Below, piece after piece: positions 394 to 13,728 of a stretch of 53,289 nt of DNA. Position 1 is the stretch's first letter; each line of letters opens with the position of its first letter. The translations under genes were made by a program, and so were the position numbers. This stretch comes from a virus. Taxonomy: Duplodnaviria > Caudoviricetes. Location of the stretch: IMG/VR virus record IMGVR_UViG_3300039004_000002, positions 1 through 53,289 of that record; one strand, given 5' to 3'. The notes beneath the pieces were generated by a model. The model made no database searches. It saw nothing but the letters and a program-made list of their open reading frames with translations, and was not told the origin of the DNA.

Positions 394-486
394 ATGGCTA
401 ACATCAGAACTCAATTACAAATCGCTAATGACTCATTCGCCAACGCTATGACCCTGATCGCGATGTTACGTGCAGCGCGAGGCTAA
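394..486 (+). CDS. 30-aa early peptide (MANIRTQLQ...)
   Basis: GAGGAC RBS upstream of ATG 394, directly after P1; the longer ORF call from 277 runs through the promoter. Confidence 0.55.
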   Translation: MANIRTQLQIANDSFANAMTLIAMLRAARG

Positions 487-490
487 GAGA

Positions 491-976
491 ATGAACCAGA
501 AGTTACTTGACAACATCCGATCTATGAACGAAGCTGAGTTGTATGCCGCTATATACAAGGACGCATTAACTGGCGCTAACAATCGACGCGCTTTCGACCA
601 GAAGAACGACTATTCAACTGTGGCTATTGTTGATATGGATTCGCTTAAATATCTGAACGACAAATATGGGCATCGCACAGGTGACCAGTACATGATCAAT
701 CTGGTGGACATACTGCGCACCCATTTCGGGGACGACAATGTCTATCGATTGGGAGGAGATGAGTTTGCGGTGACTTCGTATCTGAGTTGTGAAGCTCTTA
801 CTGTAAAGTTAACCCATATCCAGCGCAAAGTAGAATTCTTCACTTTTGGGACTGGGGTGTACTTGGCTGAAGCGGACGATCAGTTGAACAGGAATAAGGA
901 ACGACGTGAGAAGTGTGGTCAACGTGCATCACGAGGTGAGTGCCCACCTTGGGAAATCAAAAATATTTGCGCCTAG
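491..976 (+). CDS. GGDEF-domain diguanylate cyclase
   Basis: Motifs DALTGANNRRAF, DMDSLKYLNDKYGHRTGD and RLGGDEF; ATG 491 follows the stop of the upstream peptide. Confidence 0.92.
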   Translation: MNQKLLDNIRSMNEAELYAAIYKDALTGANNRRAFDQKNDYSTVAIVDMDSLKYLNDKYGHRTGDQYMINLVDILRTHFGDDNVYRLGGDEFAVTSYLSCEALTVKLTHIQRKVEFFTFGTGVYLAEADDQLNRNKERREKCGQRASRGECPPWEIKNICA

Positions 977-990
977 TTTTGCGAAAGTCG

Positions 991-1019
991 TTGCATTTAT
1001 CAGATGCTTCTATTATAAT
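991..1019 (+). promoter_or_regulatory. sigma70-type early promoter P2 (TTGCAT-17-TATAAT)
   Basis: Consensus -10 with 17-bp spacer; duplicate of P1. Confidence 0.8.
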
Positions 1020-1055
1020 TACTTTAACAGTTAAGCAATCAGCGGAGTAGATCAA

Positions 1056-1208
1056 ATGAAAACAGTTAAATACAAGCGTTTCGGAAAAGAGTTTGAAGGT
1101 GAAGTTGTTTGTACTTTTACTGTCGAAACCACTGGGGAACGCTATTATTCTTTGAAGTGTATTCATTCAGGCAAGTCTTTCTCTGCTCCTGTCAACGAAT
1201 GTTATTAA
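1056..1208 (+). CDS. 50-aa hypothetical protein (MKTVKYKRFGKEFEGEVV...ECY), not in ORF track
   Basis: GGAG RBS, follows P2, fills the gap before the helicase. Confidence 0.7.
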   Translation: MKTVKYKRFGKEFEGEVVCTFTVETTGERYYSLKCIHSGKSFSAPVNECY

Positions 1209-1232
1209 TTCAACTAACTAGGAACCAACACT

Positions 1233-2678
1233 ATGAAATGGTCCAACTATCAGTCCGACATCTTTAACTTCGTCGAAAACCAATTCGGCAATGCCATAAT
1301 CGAGGCAGTCGCTGGCAGCGGCAAGACGACAACTATTGTGGAAGCGATCAATCGAGTTCCATCTCACCAATCAGCAATCTTTCTGGCTTTCAATAAGTCT
1401 ATCGCTGAGGAGTTGAAATCCCGCGGTGTTAACGCCAAGACATTCCATTCCCTGTGCTGCTCTGCTGCAATGCGTGCAGTCAATGCCAACGGTATCAGCG
1501 GAGACAAGCTCAATCGACTTATGCGTGAGAACTTCTCCGAGGATGACAATTTCAAATACTGCACGTTCGTCACCCGTCTTGTTGGCCTGGGCAAGCAAGT
1601 AGGCGTTGGCTGTTTGGTACCTGACACCCAGAACGTCTGGTATGACATCATTGATCATCACGATCTGGAGCTTGATAAGGAAGACACATCTATTACACGC
1701 GCCATTGAGATTGCCGCTGAGTTGCTTACCCTTAGCAATAGCAGCAACATGATTGACTTCGACGACATGCTGTATCTGCCAGTTCTGTTTGGGTTAAGCC
1801 TACCGAAGTTTTATTTTATCTTTGTGGATGAGGCACAGGATACCAACGCTATTCAACGCGCAATCCTTCGGAAGATAATGGGCCCGAAATCCCGTCTGGT
1901 AGCTGTGGGCGATCCCGCACAAGCGATCTATGGTTTCCGTGGGGCGGACAGCAATTCCCTGAACCGCATTCAGAAGGAATTCAATTGTAAGCGTTTCCCA
2001 TTGTCAGTCAGCTATCGCTGCTCCACCAACATTGTGGAACATGCCCGCAACTGGGTTGACCATATACAGCCAGCTGACGGGGCGCCTGCAGGCGAGGTAC
2101 TGCACCTGAACTATGAATGGGAAGTGGATTGCTTTGATCCAGAAGATCTCGTCGTGTGCCGCACTACACGGCCGCTCATCGCATTGGCATTCAAGATGCT
2201 TCGTGCCCGTATCCCTGTCACTGTAATGGGCCGGGAAATTGGAACAGGACTTGTGAAGCTGATCCGCAAATTCAGAACGAATGATATTGACGAGCTGGAG
2301 AAGAAGATTGAGATGTGGGCGCGACGTGAGACCGAGAAAGCTGTGGCCAAGATGGATGAGTCCAAGGCAGCAGCGATCGAGGACAAATCACAATGCTTGA
2401 TGATGCTGTGCGGGGAGATAGGTGAAGAGGGTGGAGATGTTCAATCTCTCATCAACACTATCGAACAACTGTTCACACCTACGCGCAACAGCACAACCCT
2501 GGCAACTATCCATAAAGCGAAAGGCCTGGAAGCAGATACCGTCTATTGGTTGAACTCTTCCCAGTGCCCCAGCAAGTGGGCACGTCAACGATGGCAGAAA
2601 GTTCAGGAAAATAATCTTTGCTATGTAGCAACTACCCGGGCCAAGTCTAAACTGGTCCTCATTGAGATGGGGGACTGA
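1233..2678 (+). CDS. UvrD/Rep-like SF1 DNA helicase
   Basis: AVAGSGKTT (Walker A), VDEAQD, VGDPAQAIYGFRGA, TIHKAKGLE, YVATTRAK. Confidence 0.93.
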   Translation: MKWSNYQSDIFNFVENQFGNAIIEAVAGSGKTTTIVEAINRVPSHQSAIFLAFNKSIAEELKSRGVNAKTFHSLCCSAAMRAVNANGISGDKLNRLMRENFSEDDNFKYCTFVTRLVGLGKQVGVGCLVPDTQNVWYDIIDHHDLELDKEDTSITRAIEIAAELLTLSNSSNMIDFDDMLYLPVLFGLSLPKFYFIFVDEAQDTNAIQRAILRKIMGPKSRLVAVGDPAQAIYGFRGADSNSLNRIQKEFNCKRFPLSVSYRCSTNIVEHARNWVDHIQPADGAPAGEVLHLNYEWEVDCFDPEDLVVCRTTRPLIALAFKMLRARIPVTVMGREIGTGLVKLIRKFRTNDIDELEKKIEMWARRETEKAVAKMDESKAAAIEDKSQCLMMLCGEIGEEGGDVQSLINTIEQLFTPTRNSTTLATIHKAKGLEADTVYWLNSSQCPSKWARQRWQKVQENNLCYVATTRAKSKLVLIEMGD

Positions 2679-2679
2679 T

Positions 2680-2877
2680 ATGGCGCTAGGGGATAGCAAC
2701 TACCAAAGGCTCAAGGATGAGCTGGAGGCGCTGAAATGCACGAAGTGTCATGGATCAGGTAAAGTTGATGACGCTGAACCTGGAGATATATCATTCAACG
2801 AGTATACGTGCCCTCGATGTGGCGGTACTGGACTCAAAGATGGGGTTGAGGCAAAGCTCCGGGAGTGTTACGAATGA
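2680..2877 (+). CDS. small zinc-finger protein with two DnaJ-type CxxCxGxG motifs
   Basis: CTKCHGSG and CPRCGGTG. Confidence 0.75.
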   Translation: MALGDSNYQRLKDELEALKCTKCHGSGKVDDAEPGDISFNEYTCPRCGGTGLKDGVEAKLRECYE

Positions 2878-3239
2878 GATCGCTCACTTACTGCTGGGCC
2901 CAGGACCAGTGCTTACAGAACGCAGAGATAGCAGAAAAGGGAGCTATCATACTTTTATTGATGATAGCGTCTATTGCTGTGCTAGTATGTGCCGCAATTA
3001 TCTTGCATCAGGCGTATAAGTTCTTTATAGTGCTTGCTGACGCCGTTGGGGCGCACATTCTGCATCTCTGGAGAGGACAAATGTATCTGAAACTGGCCTG
3101 GATCATCATTGGTCTGATCGCCATGTACCTGTTAGGGCATTACTGGAACAAAGGACTCGTTCCTTTCGTATTCTTCTGGTGTGTTGTGTATTCTTACATG
3201 ATACGCCCAAAAGGTAAGAAGCGTGAAGACCAACGGTGA
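2874..3239 (+). CDS. membrane protein (a second start at 3081 with a strong RBS is possible)
   Basis: Several hydrophobic segments; ATGA overlap with the upstream gene; GAGAGGA before ATG 3081. Confidence 0.6.
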   Translation: MRSLTYCWAQDQCLQNAEIAEKGAIILLLMIASIAVLVCAAIILHQAYKFFIVLADAVGAHILHLWRGQMYLKLAWIIIGLIAMYLLGHYWNKGLVPFVFFWCVVYSYMIRPKGKKREDQR

Positions 3240-3564
3240 GCGTGAAGAGTGGGACACACCCTGTCGAGGGGTGTGTTCTACGACTAACGTAGGCGATTCA
3301 ATATGCAGAGGATGCGGGCGCACTGCGGAAGAAGTTATCAACTGGAACTCGTACACCCGTGATCAGAAGGTCGCGGTCAATCGGAGGCTCAAAATTCAAA
3401 AATCAATCTGGCCCATAAAGGAGAATCCAGACTGGCCAAAAATCGAGCCTGAGTATCTAGAGCAGTTACAGGCGGTGCCGAATGAAGAACGTCGTAAATT
3501 TCTTGAAGGTGATTGGAATGGACCGGATAATCAATTGGGAGGGGACGTACATTCCACCGAGTGA
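3223..3564 (+). CDS. DUF1289-like Cys-rich protein with C-terminal terminase-like peptide
   Basis: PCRGVC...CRGCGRT.EE..NW is typical of DUF1289; the C-terminus KENP..PEY...RR..LEGDW matches a TerL segment. Confidence 0.8.
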   Translation: MKTNGEREEWDTPCRGVCSTTNVGDSICRGCGRTAEEVINWNSYTRDQKVAVNRRLKIQKSIWPIKENPDWPKIEPEYLEQLQAVPNEERRKFLEGDWNGPDNQLGGDVHSTE

Positions 3565-3754
3565 CAAAGAGGACGTCATTCGTGCGGAGTTTGCGCTCAA
3601 AGGTTGGAAACGGGATTCCCTTGGACGTATGAACAAGGGTAATCTCCAGATCGTGTTTATATTCGATAAGGTGTGCCTTAAGAAGTACGAGGATGGGCAG
3701 TGGCGAACTGTGCAGAAAGCATCTATTGACCGTTTATATGAGAAGCTGAAATGA
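3518..3754 (+). CDS. hypothetical protein
   Basis: ORF in the early operon, ATGA-coupled to the next gene. Confidence 0.6.
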   Translation: MDRIINWEGTYIPPSDKEDVIRAEFALKGWKRDSLGRMNKGNLQIVFIFDKVCLKKYEDGQWRTVQKASIDRLYEKLK

Positions 3755-3999
3755 AATACCTTATTCTGGCATGTGCTGTGCTTGTAGGCTGCGAGGCCAA
3801 AGACGTGCGCGGCAAATACCACTATCCATATAAAGGGACTCACATTGTATGCAGGGACGGGGAGACTTGGCAGATGGGCGCTGTGCGCTATAAGCTCAAA
3901 GGACCTGTACCCTGCACTATAACGGACCCAGCAACAGGAAAGACAGAGTTCAAAGGTGTTGAACCTGATATTGTCGTCTTTATACAGGAATCGAAATAA
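3751..3999 (+). CDS. putative lipoprotein
   Basis: Signal peptide with lipobox: MKYLILACAVLVG-C. Confidence 0.7.
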   Translation: MKYLILACAVLVGCEAKDVRGKYHYPYKGTHIVCRDGETWQMGAVRYKLKGPVPCTITDPATGKTEFKGVEPDIVVFIQESK

Positions 4000-4526
4000 T
4001 GCTTGACTTCATGATTATTGGATTACCAAGATCCGGAACTACCTGGGCAGCCAACTGGTTGACTACTAAGGACACCTTCTGTCTTCATGACCCTTTGTAC
4101 AAACTGCACTATTCGGAATGGGACACAGACCGGAAGCACTTTCCGCATCCGATGGATTATCGTTTAATTGGCGCAAGCTGCACAGCCATATGGCGGTTCC
4201 CGGACTATGTGAACGCGCACCCTGCGAACAAGATTGTGGTCATGCGGGACTTCCAGGAGATTCAGGATAGCTTAGATCAACTTGGTTTGCCTCAGCTTAA
4301 TGACGACGCACCTTTCCAGTTAGAGGACATTGAAGCGCCTCGGGTGCAGTATACAGACTTATTCGATCCCGAGCGTGCGCCCCTTATATGGGAGAAGCTA
4401 GTCGGCCCTGGGTATTGTCCGCATAGACATAAGGCGTTGAGTGAAATTCATATCGAACCCCATTTCGAACGTATTGAACCTGACTTCGAGGTGACGAAAA
4501 GGCTTTACGAAGAACTTAACGGATAG
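3999..4526 (+). CDS. sulfotransferase-like P-loop protein
   Basis: N-terminal FMIIGLPRSGTTW (PAPS 5'-PSB-like loop), LHDP, IVVMRD. Confidence 0.7.
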   Translation: MLDFMIIGLPRSGTTWAANWLTTKDTFCLHDPLYKLHYSEWDTDRKHFPHPMDYRLIGASCTAIWRFPDYVNAHPANKIVVMRDFQEIQDSLDQLGLPQLNDDAPFQLEDIEAPRVQYTDLFDPERAPLIWEKLVGPGYCPHRHKALSEIHIEPHFERIEPDFEVTKRLYEELNG

Positions 4527-4534
4527 TTTAATTC

Positions 4535-4563
4535 TTGCAACATCTGAAGACTTGTGTAATACT
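4535..4563 (+). promoter_or_regulatory. putative promoter (TTGCAA-16/17-TAATAC(T))
   Basis: Intergenic; CATCTGA (reverse complement of the TCAGATG motif in P1/P2) lies in the spacer. Confidence 0.55.
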
Positions 4564-4595
4564 TAAATGGAATTCATCACTGCGAGGTAATAAAG

Positions 4596-4829
4596 ATGAA
4601 TACAGAGTTGACAAGCCAACAGAAAGGCAGACTGACAGAACTATCGGATGCGAGCCGGGATCTGATGCAGATTATTCAGCTAGTGTATATCGAAGATGGG
4701 CACCAGAAGGATCTTGAGAAAGCGTTAGGCGACCTTTATGCAGTAGCAGGGCACATGGCGGTTGAACAGGATATTTCATGGACTGGGTTGTGTGAATGTG
4801 CCCAGAAGCATTATGAGGAGGCAGAGTGA
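4596..4829 (+). CDS. hypothetical protein (weak MazG-like helix, LEKALGDL)
   Basis: GAGG RBS; ORF track. Confidence 0.65.
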   Translation: MNTELTSQQKGRLTELSDASRDLMQIIQLVYIEDGHQKDLEKALGDLYAVAGHMAVEQDISWTGLCECAQKHYEEAE

Positions 4830-5248
4830 TTCTAGTGAAGGTACGGGCCGACGGAGTCGACTCGTACTACCTTGTGAATCAGATAACTCAAGTATATCAG
4901 AAAATAGCGAAAGAAGGCTTATCCCCTGAGAGTGTAGAAACCCTCACTGATAATGTGATAGTTGATCTGCACCCAGAACGAGAAACTCCTGAAACCTTCC
5001 TTACTAAATGCTGTCTTGAGTTTGAGATCACTCTTGCTGACTTGCGCGGGCCCGACAGGAAGAAGCGTATTGTCTCTATCCGAAAGGTGGTGTCTTATCA
5101 GCTTCGTAAGAAGTTCGATTTATCCCTTCCGGATATTGGCGACATGTTACATCGTGACCACACTAGCATCATCTACAACCTGGAGTCCGTCGAGAAGCAG
5201 CTTAAAGACGGTGGACCATTAATAAACCTACTTGAGAGGATTCAATAA
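4826..5248 (+). CDS. DnaA C-terminal (domain IV) HTH-containing protein
   Basis: ADLRGPDRKKRIVSIRKVVSYQLRKKFDLSLPDIGDMLHRDHTSII matches the Bac_DnaA_C pattern. Confidence 0.85.
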   Translation: MILVKVRADGVDSYYLVNQITQVYQKIAKEGLSPESVETLTDNVIVDLHPERETPETFLTKCCLEFEITLADLRGPDRKKRIVSIRKVVSYQLRKKFDLSLPDIGDMLHRDHTSIIYNLESVEKQLKDGGPLINLLERIQ

Positions 5249-5682
5249 TGAACAGACGTAATTTCATCAAGAATGTGCTTTATGGGATGGCAGCAATTAG
5301 CGCCTTTCCTACTAAGGCAGCAGAACTCTATCCCGAAGCATTCACTATTGATCCGGTACCTGCTGATCCTACCTATACAGGGCACACAAACCCGGCACGC
5401 TGTATGCTTGATCTTCTTCGGACTGTGTATGACCCCGAAGACATAGATTATGAATCTTTCGAGGATGTTGCACAGCAATTAGAAGGAACTATTCCACCTG
5501 AAGTAATAGCGGACGGATTCATTATAGGTGAAGGACATCTTACTTTTGACGAGGGCGCAAACCGCCTCTGCGATATAGGTGACTTCTTTGTTTATGTTGA
5601 CGGTGAAAACGATCACTTAGTGAAGGCTAAGAAGGTGGATAAATATGACACAGACGCAATACTGCACCCTCTGCGGTCGTGA
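5248..5682 (+). CDS. Tat-signal protein carrying a stand-alone tail-tip (gpJ-like) hub domain
   Basis: MNRRNFIK...AxA signal; NPARCMLDLL..DIDYESF..VYVD..DKYDTD aligns with this genome's tail-tip protein. Confidence 0.75.
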   Translation: MNRRNFIKNVLYGMAAISAFPTKAAELYPEAFTIDPVPADPTYTGHTNPARCMLDLLRTVYDPEDIDYESFEDVAQQLEGTIPPEVIADGFIIGEGHLTFDEGANRLCDIGDFFVYVDGENDHLVKAKKVDKYDTDAILHPLRS

Positions 5683-5707
5683 AGGGCATTATCCAAAAGA
5701 TTGCCCC

Positions 5708-5737
5708 TTGCGCCCGCCAACAGAAGCATCTTATAAT
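5708..5737 (+). promoter_or_regulatory. putative promoter (TTGCGC-18-TATAAT)
   Basis: Perfect -10; AGAAGCATCT in the spacer is the reverse complement of AGATGCTTCT in P2. Confidence 0.6.
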
Positions 5738-5768
5738 GAGCTTTCTGAACATAACAAAGGAAACAAAA

Positions 5769-5957
5769 GTGAAGACTAAGATCAAGAAGATTAAGTCCTC
5801 GTCAGATTTCACAGAGCGCCTGAATGGTGTAGGAACTTTCCGTATTACTGGTCCCAGTGCTAAGGATGGAAAGCGAATTACCATTAACTTCAACGGAACA
5901 CGCGCCCAAGCAGAAAAGGTCGCAGCCAGCCCATTGGTATTGGAGCACGGGGTATGA
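5769..5957 (+). CDS. small basic protein, integrase-Arm/AP2-like beta-sheet DNA-binding pattern
   Basis: AAGGA RBS with GTG start; DGKRITINFNGTRAQAEK. Confidence 0.55.
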   Translation: MKTKIKKIKSSSDFTERLNGVGTFRITGPSAKDGKRITINFNGTRAQAEKVAASPLVLEHGV

Positions 5958-6466
5958 GTAAGATTCATGACAAGATGCGAAAGCTCTTAGCACTTGCCGA
6001 GCGCGGTGAAGGCGGGGAGAAAGATAACGCCCAGCGGATGCTGGAAAAGATGATGGAGAAATATGGTATCTCCTTAGACGACCTTGGGGTCGAGACAACA
6101 TCCATTCACTATTGGAACTATGACAGTATGCACGAACGGACTATATTGTTTCAGACGTTCGGCAAGGTGTGCAACACATCAGAAATCACCTACTATAAGG
6201 GTGATCGGAAATGCGGATTCGAGCTTACGCCTTCCCAGTATATCGAGATGGATCTGCATTATAGCATCCTTCGCAAGGACCTGAAGAAACATATTGAACG
6301 CGCTGTGCGTGCTTTCATACACGCCAATGAACTGTTTTCAAACCATCCTTCCGAGAAGCAGAAGGAATACACTCAGGAAGAGCTTGAAGAAATAGAAGCG
6401 ATGTTGCGTATGGCTCGCAGTATTGCACCCTCACAAGTTAACCGGCAACTGGAGTACAAGGCATGA
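5954..6466 (+). CDS. DUF2786-domain protein
   Basis: KIHDKMRKLLALAERG.GGEKDNA..MLEKMMEKYGI. Confidence 0.8.
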   Translation: MSKIHDKMRKLLALAERGEGGEKDNAQRMLEKMMEKYGISLDDLGVETTSIHYWNYDSMHERTILFQTFGKVCNTSEITYYKGDRKCGFELTPSQYIEMDLHYSILRKDLKKHIERAVRAFIHANELFSNHPSEKQKEYTQEELEEIEAMLRMARSIAPSQVNRQLEYKA

Positions 6467-6717
6467 CAGATGAATTTCTTGTCACCATTGCAGATGCAGT
6501 TCTCAAGCACGTTGACGAAGTGGAACGTAATGGGCGCACGTCTCATCCTATTGTTGTCTTCAATTATGAGGGTAGGCAGAGGGCACATGCTGACCGCAAA
6601 TTTTATGAGTTCTTTGAGCCTCGTATAACGGAAGTAGAGGATCTGTCTTTTATGGGGTATCCGACGAAAGTGGATACAGAACAGACCGCACTATTTACAG
6701 TGAGAGAAACCGAATGA
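6463..6717 (+). CDS. hypothetical protein, possible HK97 capsid A-domain-like
   Basis: ATGA coupling on both sides; SFMGYPTKVD motif. Confidence 0.7.
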   Translation: MTDEFLVTIADAVLKHVDEVERNGRTSHPIVVFNYEGRQRAHADRKFYEFFEPRITEVEDLSFMGYPTKVDTEQTALFTVRETE

Positions 6718-7124
6718 AGATAGCTTTTGCATACCCACCTAATTTCCGGAAGATTGTAAAAGTCTTCCCAGCCGCAAGGGGTCATGGTGTCATTTACACA
6801 TACGGTGACACCATATTCAACCCTGGGCGCGTAGACATTCCACCTTCATTGCTTGCACATGAGGAAGTCCATTCCAAGCGACAGGGCACAAACCCGGATA
6901 TCATTGAGGAATGGTGGAATCGGTATCTTGTTGACAAGCAATTTCGCTTCGATGAGGAATTGCTTGCACATCAGGAGGAGTTTCGTTGGTATATTAACTC
7001 CAGCCTCAAAGAGAAGCGCGTCGCGCTCAACTACATTGCCCGCAGGCTGTCCTCCCCGCTATATGGGAAGCTGACAGATATCAAGCAGGCTAAAGCCATC
7101 CTTGAAAAGGTACACAAATCATGA
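6714..7124 (+). CDS. HEXXH zincin-like metallopeptidase
   Basis: LLAHEEVHSKRQ followed by FDEELLAH (third-ligand Glu region). Confidence 0.7.
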   Translation: MKIAFAYPPNFRKIVKVFPAARGHGVIYTYGDTIFNPGRVDIPPSLLAHEEVHSKRQGTNPDIIEEWWNRYLVDKQFRFDEELLAHQEEFRWYINSSLKEKRVALNYIARRLSSPLYGKLTDIKQAKAILEKVHKS

Positions 7125-7522
7125 CAGATCAAATCAACGAACATTTATTCAATTTTAAGCTGCCCATGTTTCCGAACCAGTCGATCAGCGAGAATGGTAT
7201 GCAGTGCGTGCTCGAGATGGATGGTATGCAGATGAAAGGTGTCACAGGTGGGCACCTTAGATTCGGCGCCAATGGATTCACCAATGTGGTCATTGAGTAT
7301 GAGGCAAGCTGTGCAGCAGAGTTCGCAGGGCACCTGGTAGCGCACATGACCGGATTCACGCATGAGGAGCAGCAGCTTCAGCTCGCTGAGATCTTTCGTG
7401 ATGTGAATAATGAGATCATGGCCGAGCTTGAATCGGAGGGTGCAAACTTGATGGACGAATATATGGCCCAAGCCGATTTCGTGCGCCGCATCATCGAATT
7501 GACAATTGAGAGAATTAAGTAA
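7121..7522 (+). CDS. hypothetical protein
   Basis: ATGA-coupled ORF. Confidence 0.75.
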   Translation: MTDQINEHLFNFKLPMFPNQSISENGMQCVLEMDGMQMKGVTGGHLRFGANGFTNVVIEYEASCAAEFAGHLVAHMTGFTHEEQQLQLAEIFRDVNNEIMAELESEGANLMDEYMAQADFVRRIIELTIERIK

Positions 7523-12174: not shown

Positions 12175-13728
12175 ATGCTTCCGGCAGTACAGACCCAGAC
12201 TCCAGAAGCGCCAGATGTAGTTTGGAGCCCATTAGACGGTTCCCAAGTCCTAGCGATATCCTGTCCCTGTAACCACATTCTATATGAGGGCACACGCGGC
12301 CCAGGTAAGACTGATGCTCAGCTCATGTACTTCCGACGCTTTGTTGGCATCGGATACGGACAGTTCTGGCGCGGTGTCATCTTCGATCGCGAATATAAAA
12401 ACCTTGACGACCTTATATCCAAGTCAAAACGCTGGTTCAGGCAGTTTGGGGATGGTGCCAAGTTTATCGCAAGCACAAGCCACCTGAAATGGATCTGGCC
12501 CACTGGGGAGGAACTTTGGTTCCGTGTAATGAAGACGGAACAAGACTATTGGAATTATCACGGGCACGAATTTCCATTCATTGGATGGAACGAGCTTACC
12601 AAGCAACCTAACTCCGAATTGTATGATATGGCGATGTCCTTGAACCGGACTTCGTTCCTACCTGACAAACACAGCCCGAAAGACCCTAAGACAGGTGAGA
12701 TGCAGATCCTGCCTGAAATTCCTCTTGTGGTATTCAGCACAACGAACCCTTATGGTGTTGGGCACAACTGGGTCAAGCAGCGTTTCATTGATGCAGCTCC
12801 TCCAGGTGTTATCGTACCTATCACAAGCGAAGTATTCAACCCGCGTACACAGCAGCGCGAACCCATTACCAAGACACAGGTGCGCCTGTTTGGGTCATAC
12901 AAAGAGAATATCTATCTATCCCCTGAATACATCTTAGAGCTGGAAAACATTCAGGACCCTAACAAGCGCCGAGCTTGGTTGTGGGGTGACTGGGATATCA
13001 CGAGCGGTGGCATGTTTGACGATGTGTGGTCAACTGAGCATAACATAGTCGAGCCTTTCCAAATTCCACCTGGTTGGAAGATCTTTCGTTCTTTTGACTG
13101 GGGGTCAAGTAAGCCATTCAGCGTTGGTTGGTGGGCTGAAAGTGACGGGTCAGATGTCATGCTTCCCAATGGCCAATGGAAGTCTACAGTACGAGGGGAT
13201 CTGTTTAGAATAGCAGAGTGGTATGGTTGGACTGGTGCAGCGAACCAGGGCGTCAAGATGCTCGCTACACAGATCGCAAAAGGAATCGTTGAACGAGAGA
13301 TCAGAATGGGCTATTATGGGCGGGTCAAAGCTGGCCCCGCTGATAGCTCTATCAACGATGTTGAGAATGGGAACTGCATTGCCACTGACATGGCGAAGAA
13401 AGTCACTATTAACGGGAAGCAGTATAAAGGGGTGACATGGACCCGAAGTATTAAGTCACCCGGCAGCAGAAAGAACGGCTGGGAAAAGATGCGTATAGCA
13501 ATCTTCAACGCTCAGCCTGATAATGGGCCAAGGGAATACCCGGGTCTGTTTGTGTTCCGTAACTGCCAGGACGGGTTCATAAGAACTGTGCCAAGCCTGT
13601 CACGTGATCCTAAAGATATGGACGATGTCAATACTGAGGATGAAGATCACGTAGCAGATGAGTCACGCTATGTTATACTATCGATGGGCGATCGCTTCTC
13701 TAGCGGGTCCACCACAGGTCACTTCTAA
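12175..13728 (+). CDS. terL: terminase large subunit
   Basis: GTRGPGKT (Walker A), IGWNELT, TTNPYGVGHNWVK, FDWGSSKPF, EDHVADESRY. Confidence 0.95.
   Translation: MLPAVQTQTPEAPDVVWSPLDGSQVLAISCPCNHILYEGTRGPGKTDAQLMYFRRFVGIGYGQFWRGVIFDREYKNLDDLISKSKRWFRQFGDGAKFIASTSHLKWIWPTGEELWFRVMKTEQDYWNYHGHEFPFIGWNELTKQPNSELYDMAMSLNRTSFLPDKHSPKDPKTGEMQILPEIPLVVFSTTNPYGVGHNWVKQRFIDAAPPGVIVPITSEVFNPRTQQREPITKTQVRLFGSYKENIYLSPEYILELENIQDPNKRRAWLWGDWDITSGGMFDDVWSTEHNIVEPFQIPPGWKIFRSFDWGSSKPFSVGWWAESDGSDVMLPNGQWKSTVRGDLFRIAEWYGWTGAANQGVKMLATQIAKGIVEREIRMGYYGRVKAGPADSSINDVENGNCIATDMAKKVTINGKQYKGVTWTRSIKSPGSRKNGWEKMRIAIFNAQPDNGPREYPGLFVFRNCQDGFIRTVPSLSRDPKDMDDVNTEDEDHVADESRYVILSMGDRFSSGSTTGHF

Follow-up and report, generated by a model that had tools for sequence, protein, structure and literature searches.

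The open reading frame at positions 3223-3564 raises the question of why a small phage gene should carry a piece resembling the large terminase (TerL) behind a domain of the DUF1289 family, and whether that piece has any role of its own. The window, that is the whole stretch of DNA that was analysed, is an entire IMG/VR virus record of 53,289 bases, estimated by CheckV to be 93% complete. The ORF is referred to below as the chimera and its C-terminal part as the tail; the features discussed are collected in Table 1.

Table 1. Features of the chimeric locus and of the large terminase gene of the same phage
Feature	Position (nt)	Strand	Evidence
Chimeric ORF, 113 aa, GTG start, DUF1289 domain + TerL-lid-like tail	3223..3564	+	Pfam, PHROGs, BLASTP
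DUF1289 four-Cys domain, residues 12-57	3256..3393	+	Pfam PF06945; invariant alignment columns
TerL ATPase-lid-like segment, residues 65-100, ENP...PEY...RR.FLEGDW	3415..3522	+	Profile, BLASTP, tblastn, shuffles
Dual-coding overlap, 83 nt: chimera residues 87-113 (frame 0), next gene residues 1-28 (frame +1)	3482..3564	+	
Downstream conserved gene, 90 aa	3482..3754	+	Homologues; coding score
Large terminase of the phage itself, 517 aa	12175..13728	+	phrog_979; Foldseek
Lid motif of own TerL, residues 243-288	12901-13038	+	Alignment with tail; model

Genomic context

The genome is that of a marine siphovirus, and the ORF lies in its variable early region. In TerL comparisons, the closest named phages are Alteromonas phage vB_AcoS-R7M, with 81.4% identity, and Vibrio phage VpKK5, with 71.8%; each has a genome of about 56 kb. 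The chimera gene belongs to a series of small genes, all on the same strand, and is flanked on the 5' side by genes of a UvrD-like helicase, a DnaJ-type zinc-finger protein and a membrane protein, and on the 3' side by the 90-aa gene, a small secreted-looking protein and a phrog_10855 'hydrolase'. Positions 470-7522 of the window have almost nothing in common with five complete related phage genomes. A tblastn search (23 queries in all, extending to 11527) found a match in these genomes for 2 of the 16 ORFs tested from 470-7522, namely a 170-aa ORF (genome G004) and a 133-aa ORF (genome G001); the chimera gene is absent from all five. The terminase and lysis genes beyond the early region are common to the window and the five related phages.

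Several neighbouring features were recorded. The 71-aa CxxCxGxG zinc-finger protein (2662-2877) matches phrog_6060 'anti-termination protein Q-like' (E 1.1e-19), while its match to the Pfam DnaJ central domain is below the cut-off. At L003, the viral DUF1289 locus closest to that of the window, a zinc-finger gene (6182-6313) whose product is 37% identical to it lies directly 3' of the DUF1289 gene, and this is the only synteny found with the four nearest DUF1289 loci, L003-L006, and with L021. The 175-aa protein at 3999-4526 gives a full-length match to phrog_10855 'hydrolase' (E 3.3e-54) and weak matches only to sulfotransferase Pfam families. An exact 10-nt direct repeat, AGCGTGAAGA, occurs at 3220-3229, over the GTG start, and at 3239-3248, 19 nt downstream; nothing informative was found among other repeats or terminators around the fusion joint.

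The DUF1289 domain

The 113-aa product was called identically in two source collections. The cysteine cluster that the original prediction assigned to DUF1289 was borne out by Pfam: the match to PF06945 (E 4.6e-15; 55.6 bits against a cut-off of 27) aligns residues 12-57 with positions 1-44 of the 47 in the profile, and C14, C18, C28 and C31 are invariant in an alignment of seven DUF1289 sequences. This four-cysteine domain is presumably metal-binding. No paper on the function of DUF1289 was found in the literature search, judging by titles.

The N-terminus of the chimera, MKxNGER, is common to its homologues. The four closest DUF1289 proteins are 66-74% identical to it over the domain, have 62-74 aa and end near residue 60, and two bacterial-type homologues carry a different C-terminal domain. 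Among the viral DUF1289 loci, 78 of 80 end 30-72 residues past the first Cys motif. Two near-identical loci (L013 and L014) end at 101, like the chimera, with a basic tail unlike terminase, and a TerL-HMM match beside the DUF1289 gene was found at none of the 80. The complete fusion is known from a single instance.

Resemblance of the tail to the large terminase

The alignment with TerL that was proposed from the sequence in the original prediction can be reproduced: the terminase string quoted there corresponds to residues 243-274 of the phage's own TerL, and BLASTP aligns residues 74-113 of the chimera with residues 248-288 of that protein (17 identities in 42 positions, E 3e-5). Chance has to be considered here, since the tail is a short, helical and charged peptide and the terminase motif is a common one. 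The match is only 35-45 residues long, a Pfam search of the tail gives nothing at E <= 1, and the case was selected from a very large scan. The comparison by hhalign with an alignment of 36 TerL sequences places chimera residues 65-109 on 242-284 with E 5.6e-4 and a probability of only 30%.

Other searches argue against chance. When the whole protein was compared with the 38,880 PHROG families, the sole match below E 1 was phrog_979 'terminase large subunit' (E 9e-5; residues 65-99 on positions 373-407 of the 642 in the profile; E 2.7e-5 for the tail alone), and this is the family of the phage's own TerL (E 9.1e-22). The link of the tail to terminase profiles was found in PHROGs and not in Pfam. 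None of 5000 shuffled tails reached the observed Smith-Waterman score of 68 (mean 31.6, maximum 62), and among the 125 frames of at least 100 aa in the window the tail matches TerL only, the next best score being 38.

The most telling result is the tblastn search of the 55-aa tail against 50,697 phage records, in which 461 records were matched at E <= 10. The individual E-values, from 0.007 to 10, would by themselves suit a chance resemblance, but the sampled matches are found nearly all in terminase-annotated genes (34 of the 40 best, and 49 of 60 spread evenly over the ranking), the rest lying in hypothetical, unannotated or oddly named genes. The matched terminase genes span many lineages, and the hosts include Pseudomonas, Escherichia, Vibrio, Bacillus and Arthrobacter. 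Ungapped matches to TerL with 47% identity across 34-36 residues, and the coincidence of the predicted helices of the tail with those of TerL, point the same way. The likeness of residues about 62-100 to TerL is more than chance, and an accidental resemblance appears very improbable.

Searches outside the phage records gave little. Among 1.84 billion representative proteins, nothing matched the tail at E <= 0.001 except protein P0008, which was rejected as a homologue: it is the translation of a 1038-aa tandem repeat, and its match is a false positive because the score sums over the repeats. The PDB sequence search returned nothing for the chimera but a chance match to GST (E 0.38), and nothing for the phage's own TerL, either as a single sequence or as a profile. 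In ESM Atlas, residues 58-113 gave no usable feature match, and the structures returned were unrelated and below the threshold.

The part of TerL represented in the tail

The confident model of the phage's own TerL (pLDDT 85.9) matches large terminases of solved structure, the best Foldseek match being the D6E large terminase (E 3.4e-15). Residues 219-285 of TerL align with positions 144-212 of the 215 in the Pfam Terminase_6N profile, that is, with its last positions. In the model, residues 243-288 follow the last long strand (227-240) and form two helices (250-257 and 262-270), after which a low-confidence loop leads to the first strand of the nuclease domain (302-308). The placement of the motif at the end of the ATPase domain, as originally proposed, is supported by this alignment and model together. 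In the terms of PMC5727402, the stretch that the tail matches is the lid subdomain with the inter-domain linker. Excerpts of that paper describe the TerL lid as facing the ASCE subdomain and moving upon ATP hydrolysis, with a lid Tyr bonded to the P-loop Arg and a lid Arg that bridges to the nuclease domain.

The tail carries this motif of the lid and of the end of the ATPase domain. The monomer model of the chimera was made from a single sequence and has a pLDDT of 46, therefore only its secondary structure was used; its predicted helices, at 76-83 and 87-95, fall on the TerL helices 250-257 and 262-270. Large terminases possess an ASCE core with Walker A and B motifs and a nuclease domain, whereas the chimera has none of these. 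TerL profiles match residues 65-100 only, leaving no ASCE core; neither a terminase Pfam domain nor a P-loop was found in the 113-aa sequence; and the RNase H-like nuclease domain is absent, the ORF stopping at residue 113. The chimera therefore cannot be a terminase.

Origin of the tail

With identical BLASTP settings, the tail scores 28.9 bits, with a gap, against the phage's own TerL. It scores 36.2 bits against the TerL of Pseudomonas phage vB_PsaM_M1 (47% of 36 positions, ungapped), 36.6 bits against that of Bacillus phage PK1 (one gap) and 34.7 bits against that of Vibrio phage 1.063.O (ungapped). Of 81 TerLs from the phage's own clade, 72 match the tail, all with 27-33 bits. Since scores of 35-37 bits are found elsewhere against 28.9 gapped bits at home, the tail fits the general terminase motif better than it fits the phage's own TerL, in agreement with what had been noticed in the sequence at the outset.

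A recent duplication of the phage's own terL was rejected, the codon-aligned DNA identity being 61 of 129 positions (47%). A close donor was not found by a word-index search of residues 60-113 among longer proteins, nor was a close TerL donor found among the 1.84 billion representatives. It is highly probable that the ORF combines a DUF1289 domain with a diverged module from a large terminase of another lineage.

Overlap with the downstream gene

The 3' end of the chimera gene overlaps a second gene, and this gene is real. Its homologues have 84-92 aa and are 60-73% identical to it; its first 13 residues recur in two of these homologues. It matched no family of Pfam or PHROGs, and searches with it or with its alignment for relatives in a DNA context gave none in viral contigs, JGI metagenomes, GTDB genomes or phage records. 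The coding score of its unique part (3565-3754) is +21.9 bits, on a scale where in-frame sequence has a mean of 10.7 (sd 5.6) and off-frame sequence a mean of -21, and its ATG is preceded by a ribosome-binding-like AGGCGG, as at gene 9101. Given that this gene is real, chimera residues 87-113, including RRKFLEGDW, must be read from the same 83 nt in the other frame.

Both frames score about +4.6 in the overlap. The non-overlapping part of the tail (3397-3481) scores +10.4 bits in frame 0. The relation between the two readings was examined by redrawing the synonymous codons of downstream residues 2-28 5000 times and taking the TerL score of frame 0. Frame 0 remained open through all 27 codons in 1082 of the 5000 resamples, and its TerL score had a mean of 36.1 and a maximum of 59, so that none of the 5000 reached 68. 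Hence the TerL likeness is no by-product of the downstream protein but is encoded over and above it. The N-terminus MKNVVxFLKxIGM occurs in three of four distinct members of the downstream family (the window's own, P0010 and P0012), and P0011, with 84 aa, is without it; this N-terminal extension may stem from overprinting, as that part of the gene overprints the terminase-like frame.

A frameshifted terL fragment, in which the downstream gene would continue the TerL homology in frame +1 (TerL 243-350), was also considered and rejected. Its colinear basis was a GWK match seen by eye, together with residues 71-87, which BLASTP aligned with TerL 332-348 at E 0.15. The TerL HMM, when run on all frames, matches frame 0 only, PHROGs gave nothing, and hhalign of the downstream family against the TerL family gave a probability of 0.3%, and that elsewhere.

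Distribution and a second allele

Neither the tail nor the whole chimera was found in viral contigs or JGI metagenomes, megablast of 2600-4600 against phage records gave no match, and no RNA datasets carrying the region were present among the sequencing runs listed. A DUF1289-terminase fusion was not found in print either, the DUF1289 literature being judged from titles. Of the two points on which the original prediction made its refutation depend, significant TerL matches were found; conservation among phage DUF1289 homologues did not appear, the tail being absent from all four close ones.

A fusion with one complete instance might be suspected of being an assembly or frameshift artefact, the long ORF existing in this assembly only. 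The record is a metagenome assembly, and the sole full-length holder among the sequencing runs, X1, may be the source of the record itself. The X1 contig is nevertheless identical to the window, at a word depth of 118 and with no insertions or deletions, independent contigs from run X2 cover 3169-3387 and 3448-3520 without indels, and each of the reading frames has homology support of its own. An error of assembly is thus extremely improbable.

Run X2 belongs to another study. Its Logan contigs have a depth of about 2.5 and match four parts of 2900-3900; what is covered by runs X3 and X4 lies entirely outside the tail of the ORF. The X2 contig over 3169-3387 has four differences from the window; past these positions its sequence departs from the window while staying in frame, and the 10 codons visible contain no stop. 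The contig over 3448-3520 has two differences, one synonymous in frame 0 and one giving N87H. Before PEY, X2 reads N-P-I-W-P-E-P-N where the window reads N-P-D-W-P-K-I-E, and both Pro codons differ synonymously. A second, partly replaced allele thus retains the motif in frame, from NP as far as GDWN. After GDWN, the X2 frame 0 continues V-K-E-T and meets a stop four codons on, and frame +1 past 3520 shows a start region resembling that of the homologue P0010. The two contigs have no visible join, so the fusion to DUF1289 cannot be seen in X2.

In X2, blocks of 96-98% identity alternate with stretches below 80%, and the breakpoints (3387/3388, 3447/3448 and 3520/3521) coincide with the borders of the domain and of the motif in the chimera. 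Because of this mosaic of 96-98% blocks, the near-identity of 3448-3520 is by itself no evidence of selection.

Since a single complete instance is known, a tolerated relic is a serious rival to any functional explanation. Where recombination joined the DUF1289 gene to the downstream gene, a foreign piece of terL would have stayed behind, with its product made but without a role of its own; the stop of DUF1289 would have been lost, so that the ORF runs on, and the 3' half would be kept for the start of the next gene alone. The restriction of the complete fusion to one genome agrees with this, as do the mosaic early region, with almost no homologues in the five related genomes, and the block-wise replacement at the three X2 breakpoints. 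The overlap with a conserved gene constrains 3482-3520, and the C-terminal DVHSTE match to the phage's own TerL is lost in X2.

A neutral relic should, on the other hand, be either donor-like or decayed. The identity of the tail to every TerL is at most about 47%, and the motif positions of the TerL family are retained nevertheless. The non-overlapping 3397-3481 scores like normal coding sequence, NP.WP is kept in X2 in spite of synonymous changes, and the codons of the overlap yield a peptide far more TerL-like than their synonymous alternatives do. We regard a relic without function, and its emergence by loss of the DUF1289 stop, as possible, if doubtful.

Possible function of the chimera

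The ORF is a real, translated-looking chimeric accessory gene, and we tentatively propose that its tail mimics the TerL lid and acts on the packaging motor. A module of about 40 residues, which runs from the end of the last ATPase strand over both lid helices into the beginning of the inter-domain linker, has very probably been taken from the large terminase of another lineage and joined to the DUF1289 Cys4 domain. It has then diverged in place, its last 27 codons being read also as the start of the next gene. The tail may dock on the ATPase core of a terminase, or on the usual contact partner of the lid, and thereby modulate or block the assembly or firing of a motor. The motor concerned might belong to a competitor, or to the phage itself at a stage preceding late gene expression. 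The role of the Cys4 domain would be that of a stable or regulatory handle. A point against a lid mimic is that a lid taken from its domain may not fold, and a terminase-directed function as such must be called questionable.

The suggestion that the chimera could be a dominant-negative inhibitor of a packaging motor was followed with a predicted complex. Co-folding of TerL and the chimera, with custom alignments of 36 and 7 rows, respectively, gave an ipSAE of 0.47 (runs 0.11, 0.47 and 0.52), against 0.00 for the best of three controls; the runs agree in at least 37% of contacts and the partner pLDDT is at least 54, with no interface given. The mark applied is reached by 58 of 80 solved complexes and by 2 of 110 mismatched pairs, but passes at 0.60 or under comprise 7 of the 80 solved complexes and both of the passing mismatches. 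The value was accordingly graded as weak support, such a pass being more often wrong than right unless the interaction was likely beforehand. Binding of the chimera to TerL is weakly suggested by the model.

Counter-defence genes are common in the early accessory regions of phages, and the chimera gene lies in such a region. The tail might be an immune decoy, as was also raised in the original prediction: the lid peptide would occupy the terminase-sensing domain of Avs1-3, Upx or another host sensor early in infection, without triggering it. Its TerL likeness is generic across lineages, as a broad decoy would need, and terminase sensors do exist, at least one being modelled, in excerpts of PMC13601566, to bind unfolded ATPase segments.

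The portions of that paper at hand, however, describe other targets: EcAvs2 buries 2833.5 A2 of the ATPase domain and contacts the active site and the bridging ATP; SeAvs3 reads the folded nuclease as well as ATP and residues of the active site; and Upx is modelled as threading the unfolded core strands beta1, 4, 5 and 6. The tail lacks Walker motifs and holds the end of one strand at most. Because Avs2 and Avs3 thus read large ATPase surfaces and Upx reads core strands, a decoy made of the lid alone is unattractive. In the excerpted literature on large terminase, Avs and decoy, the latter word refers to mass-spectrometry databases only. We therefore consider an immune decoy improbable.

To return to the proposed lid mimic, its boldest form would be a foreign lid hairpin turned into a small trans-acting protein, which caps terminase ATPase cores, so as to poison the motor of a competitor or to time the phage's own, or blinds a host sensor that reads the terminase. 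Such a protein might be anchored by the Cys4 domain and expressed early, and its terminase module would be preserved because the start of the next gene is encoded in it as well. Both parts of this extension seem unlikely.

A functional tail would amount to a natural peptide directed against the machine that is most conserved among tailed phages, or against immune sensors of it. It would then offer a handle on motor assembly, phage-phage competition or terminase-based immunity, and for the first time a DUF1289 protein would be placed in a functional context. Even with a tail that is a mere relic, the locus is a clean example of domain-fragment capture and overprinting.

Comparison with known systems

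The lid of known large terminases (D6E, Sf6 and T4 gp17) resembles the tail in its motif, in the order of its elements and in its predicted helices; the common motif runs from ...(D/E)NP through a loop and a PEY helix to P..(R/K)R..L.GDW. The DUF1289 part is comparable to small phage proteins, such as those of Oceanospirillum phage vB_OliS_GJ44 and Pseudomonas phage ZRG1, which have the same domain with its four cysteines. Stand-alone phage copies of DUF1289 are likewise small genes among early or accessory genes. These copies have 56-74 aa and end after the domain, whereas the chimera continues for about 50 more residues of probable terminase origin.

Another comparable case is T4 vs.8, which, according to excerpts of PMC13601566, is an accessory protein derived from a piece of TerL and, like the chimera, encoded apart from the real terminase. 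T4 vs.8 is described there as retaining the ATPase fold with Walker A and B and as activating EcAvs2. Unlike it, the chimera carries the lid hairpin only, fused to an unrelated domain.
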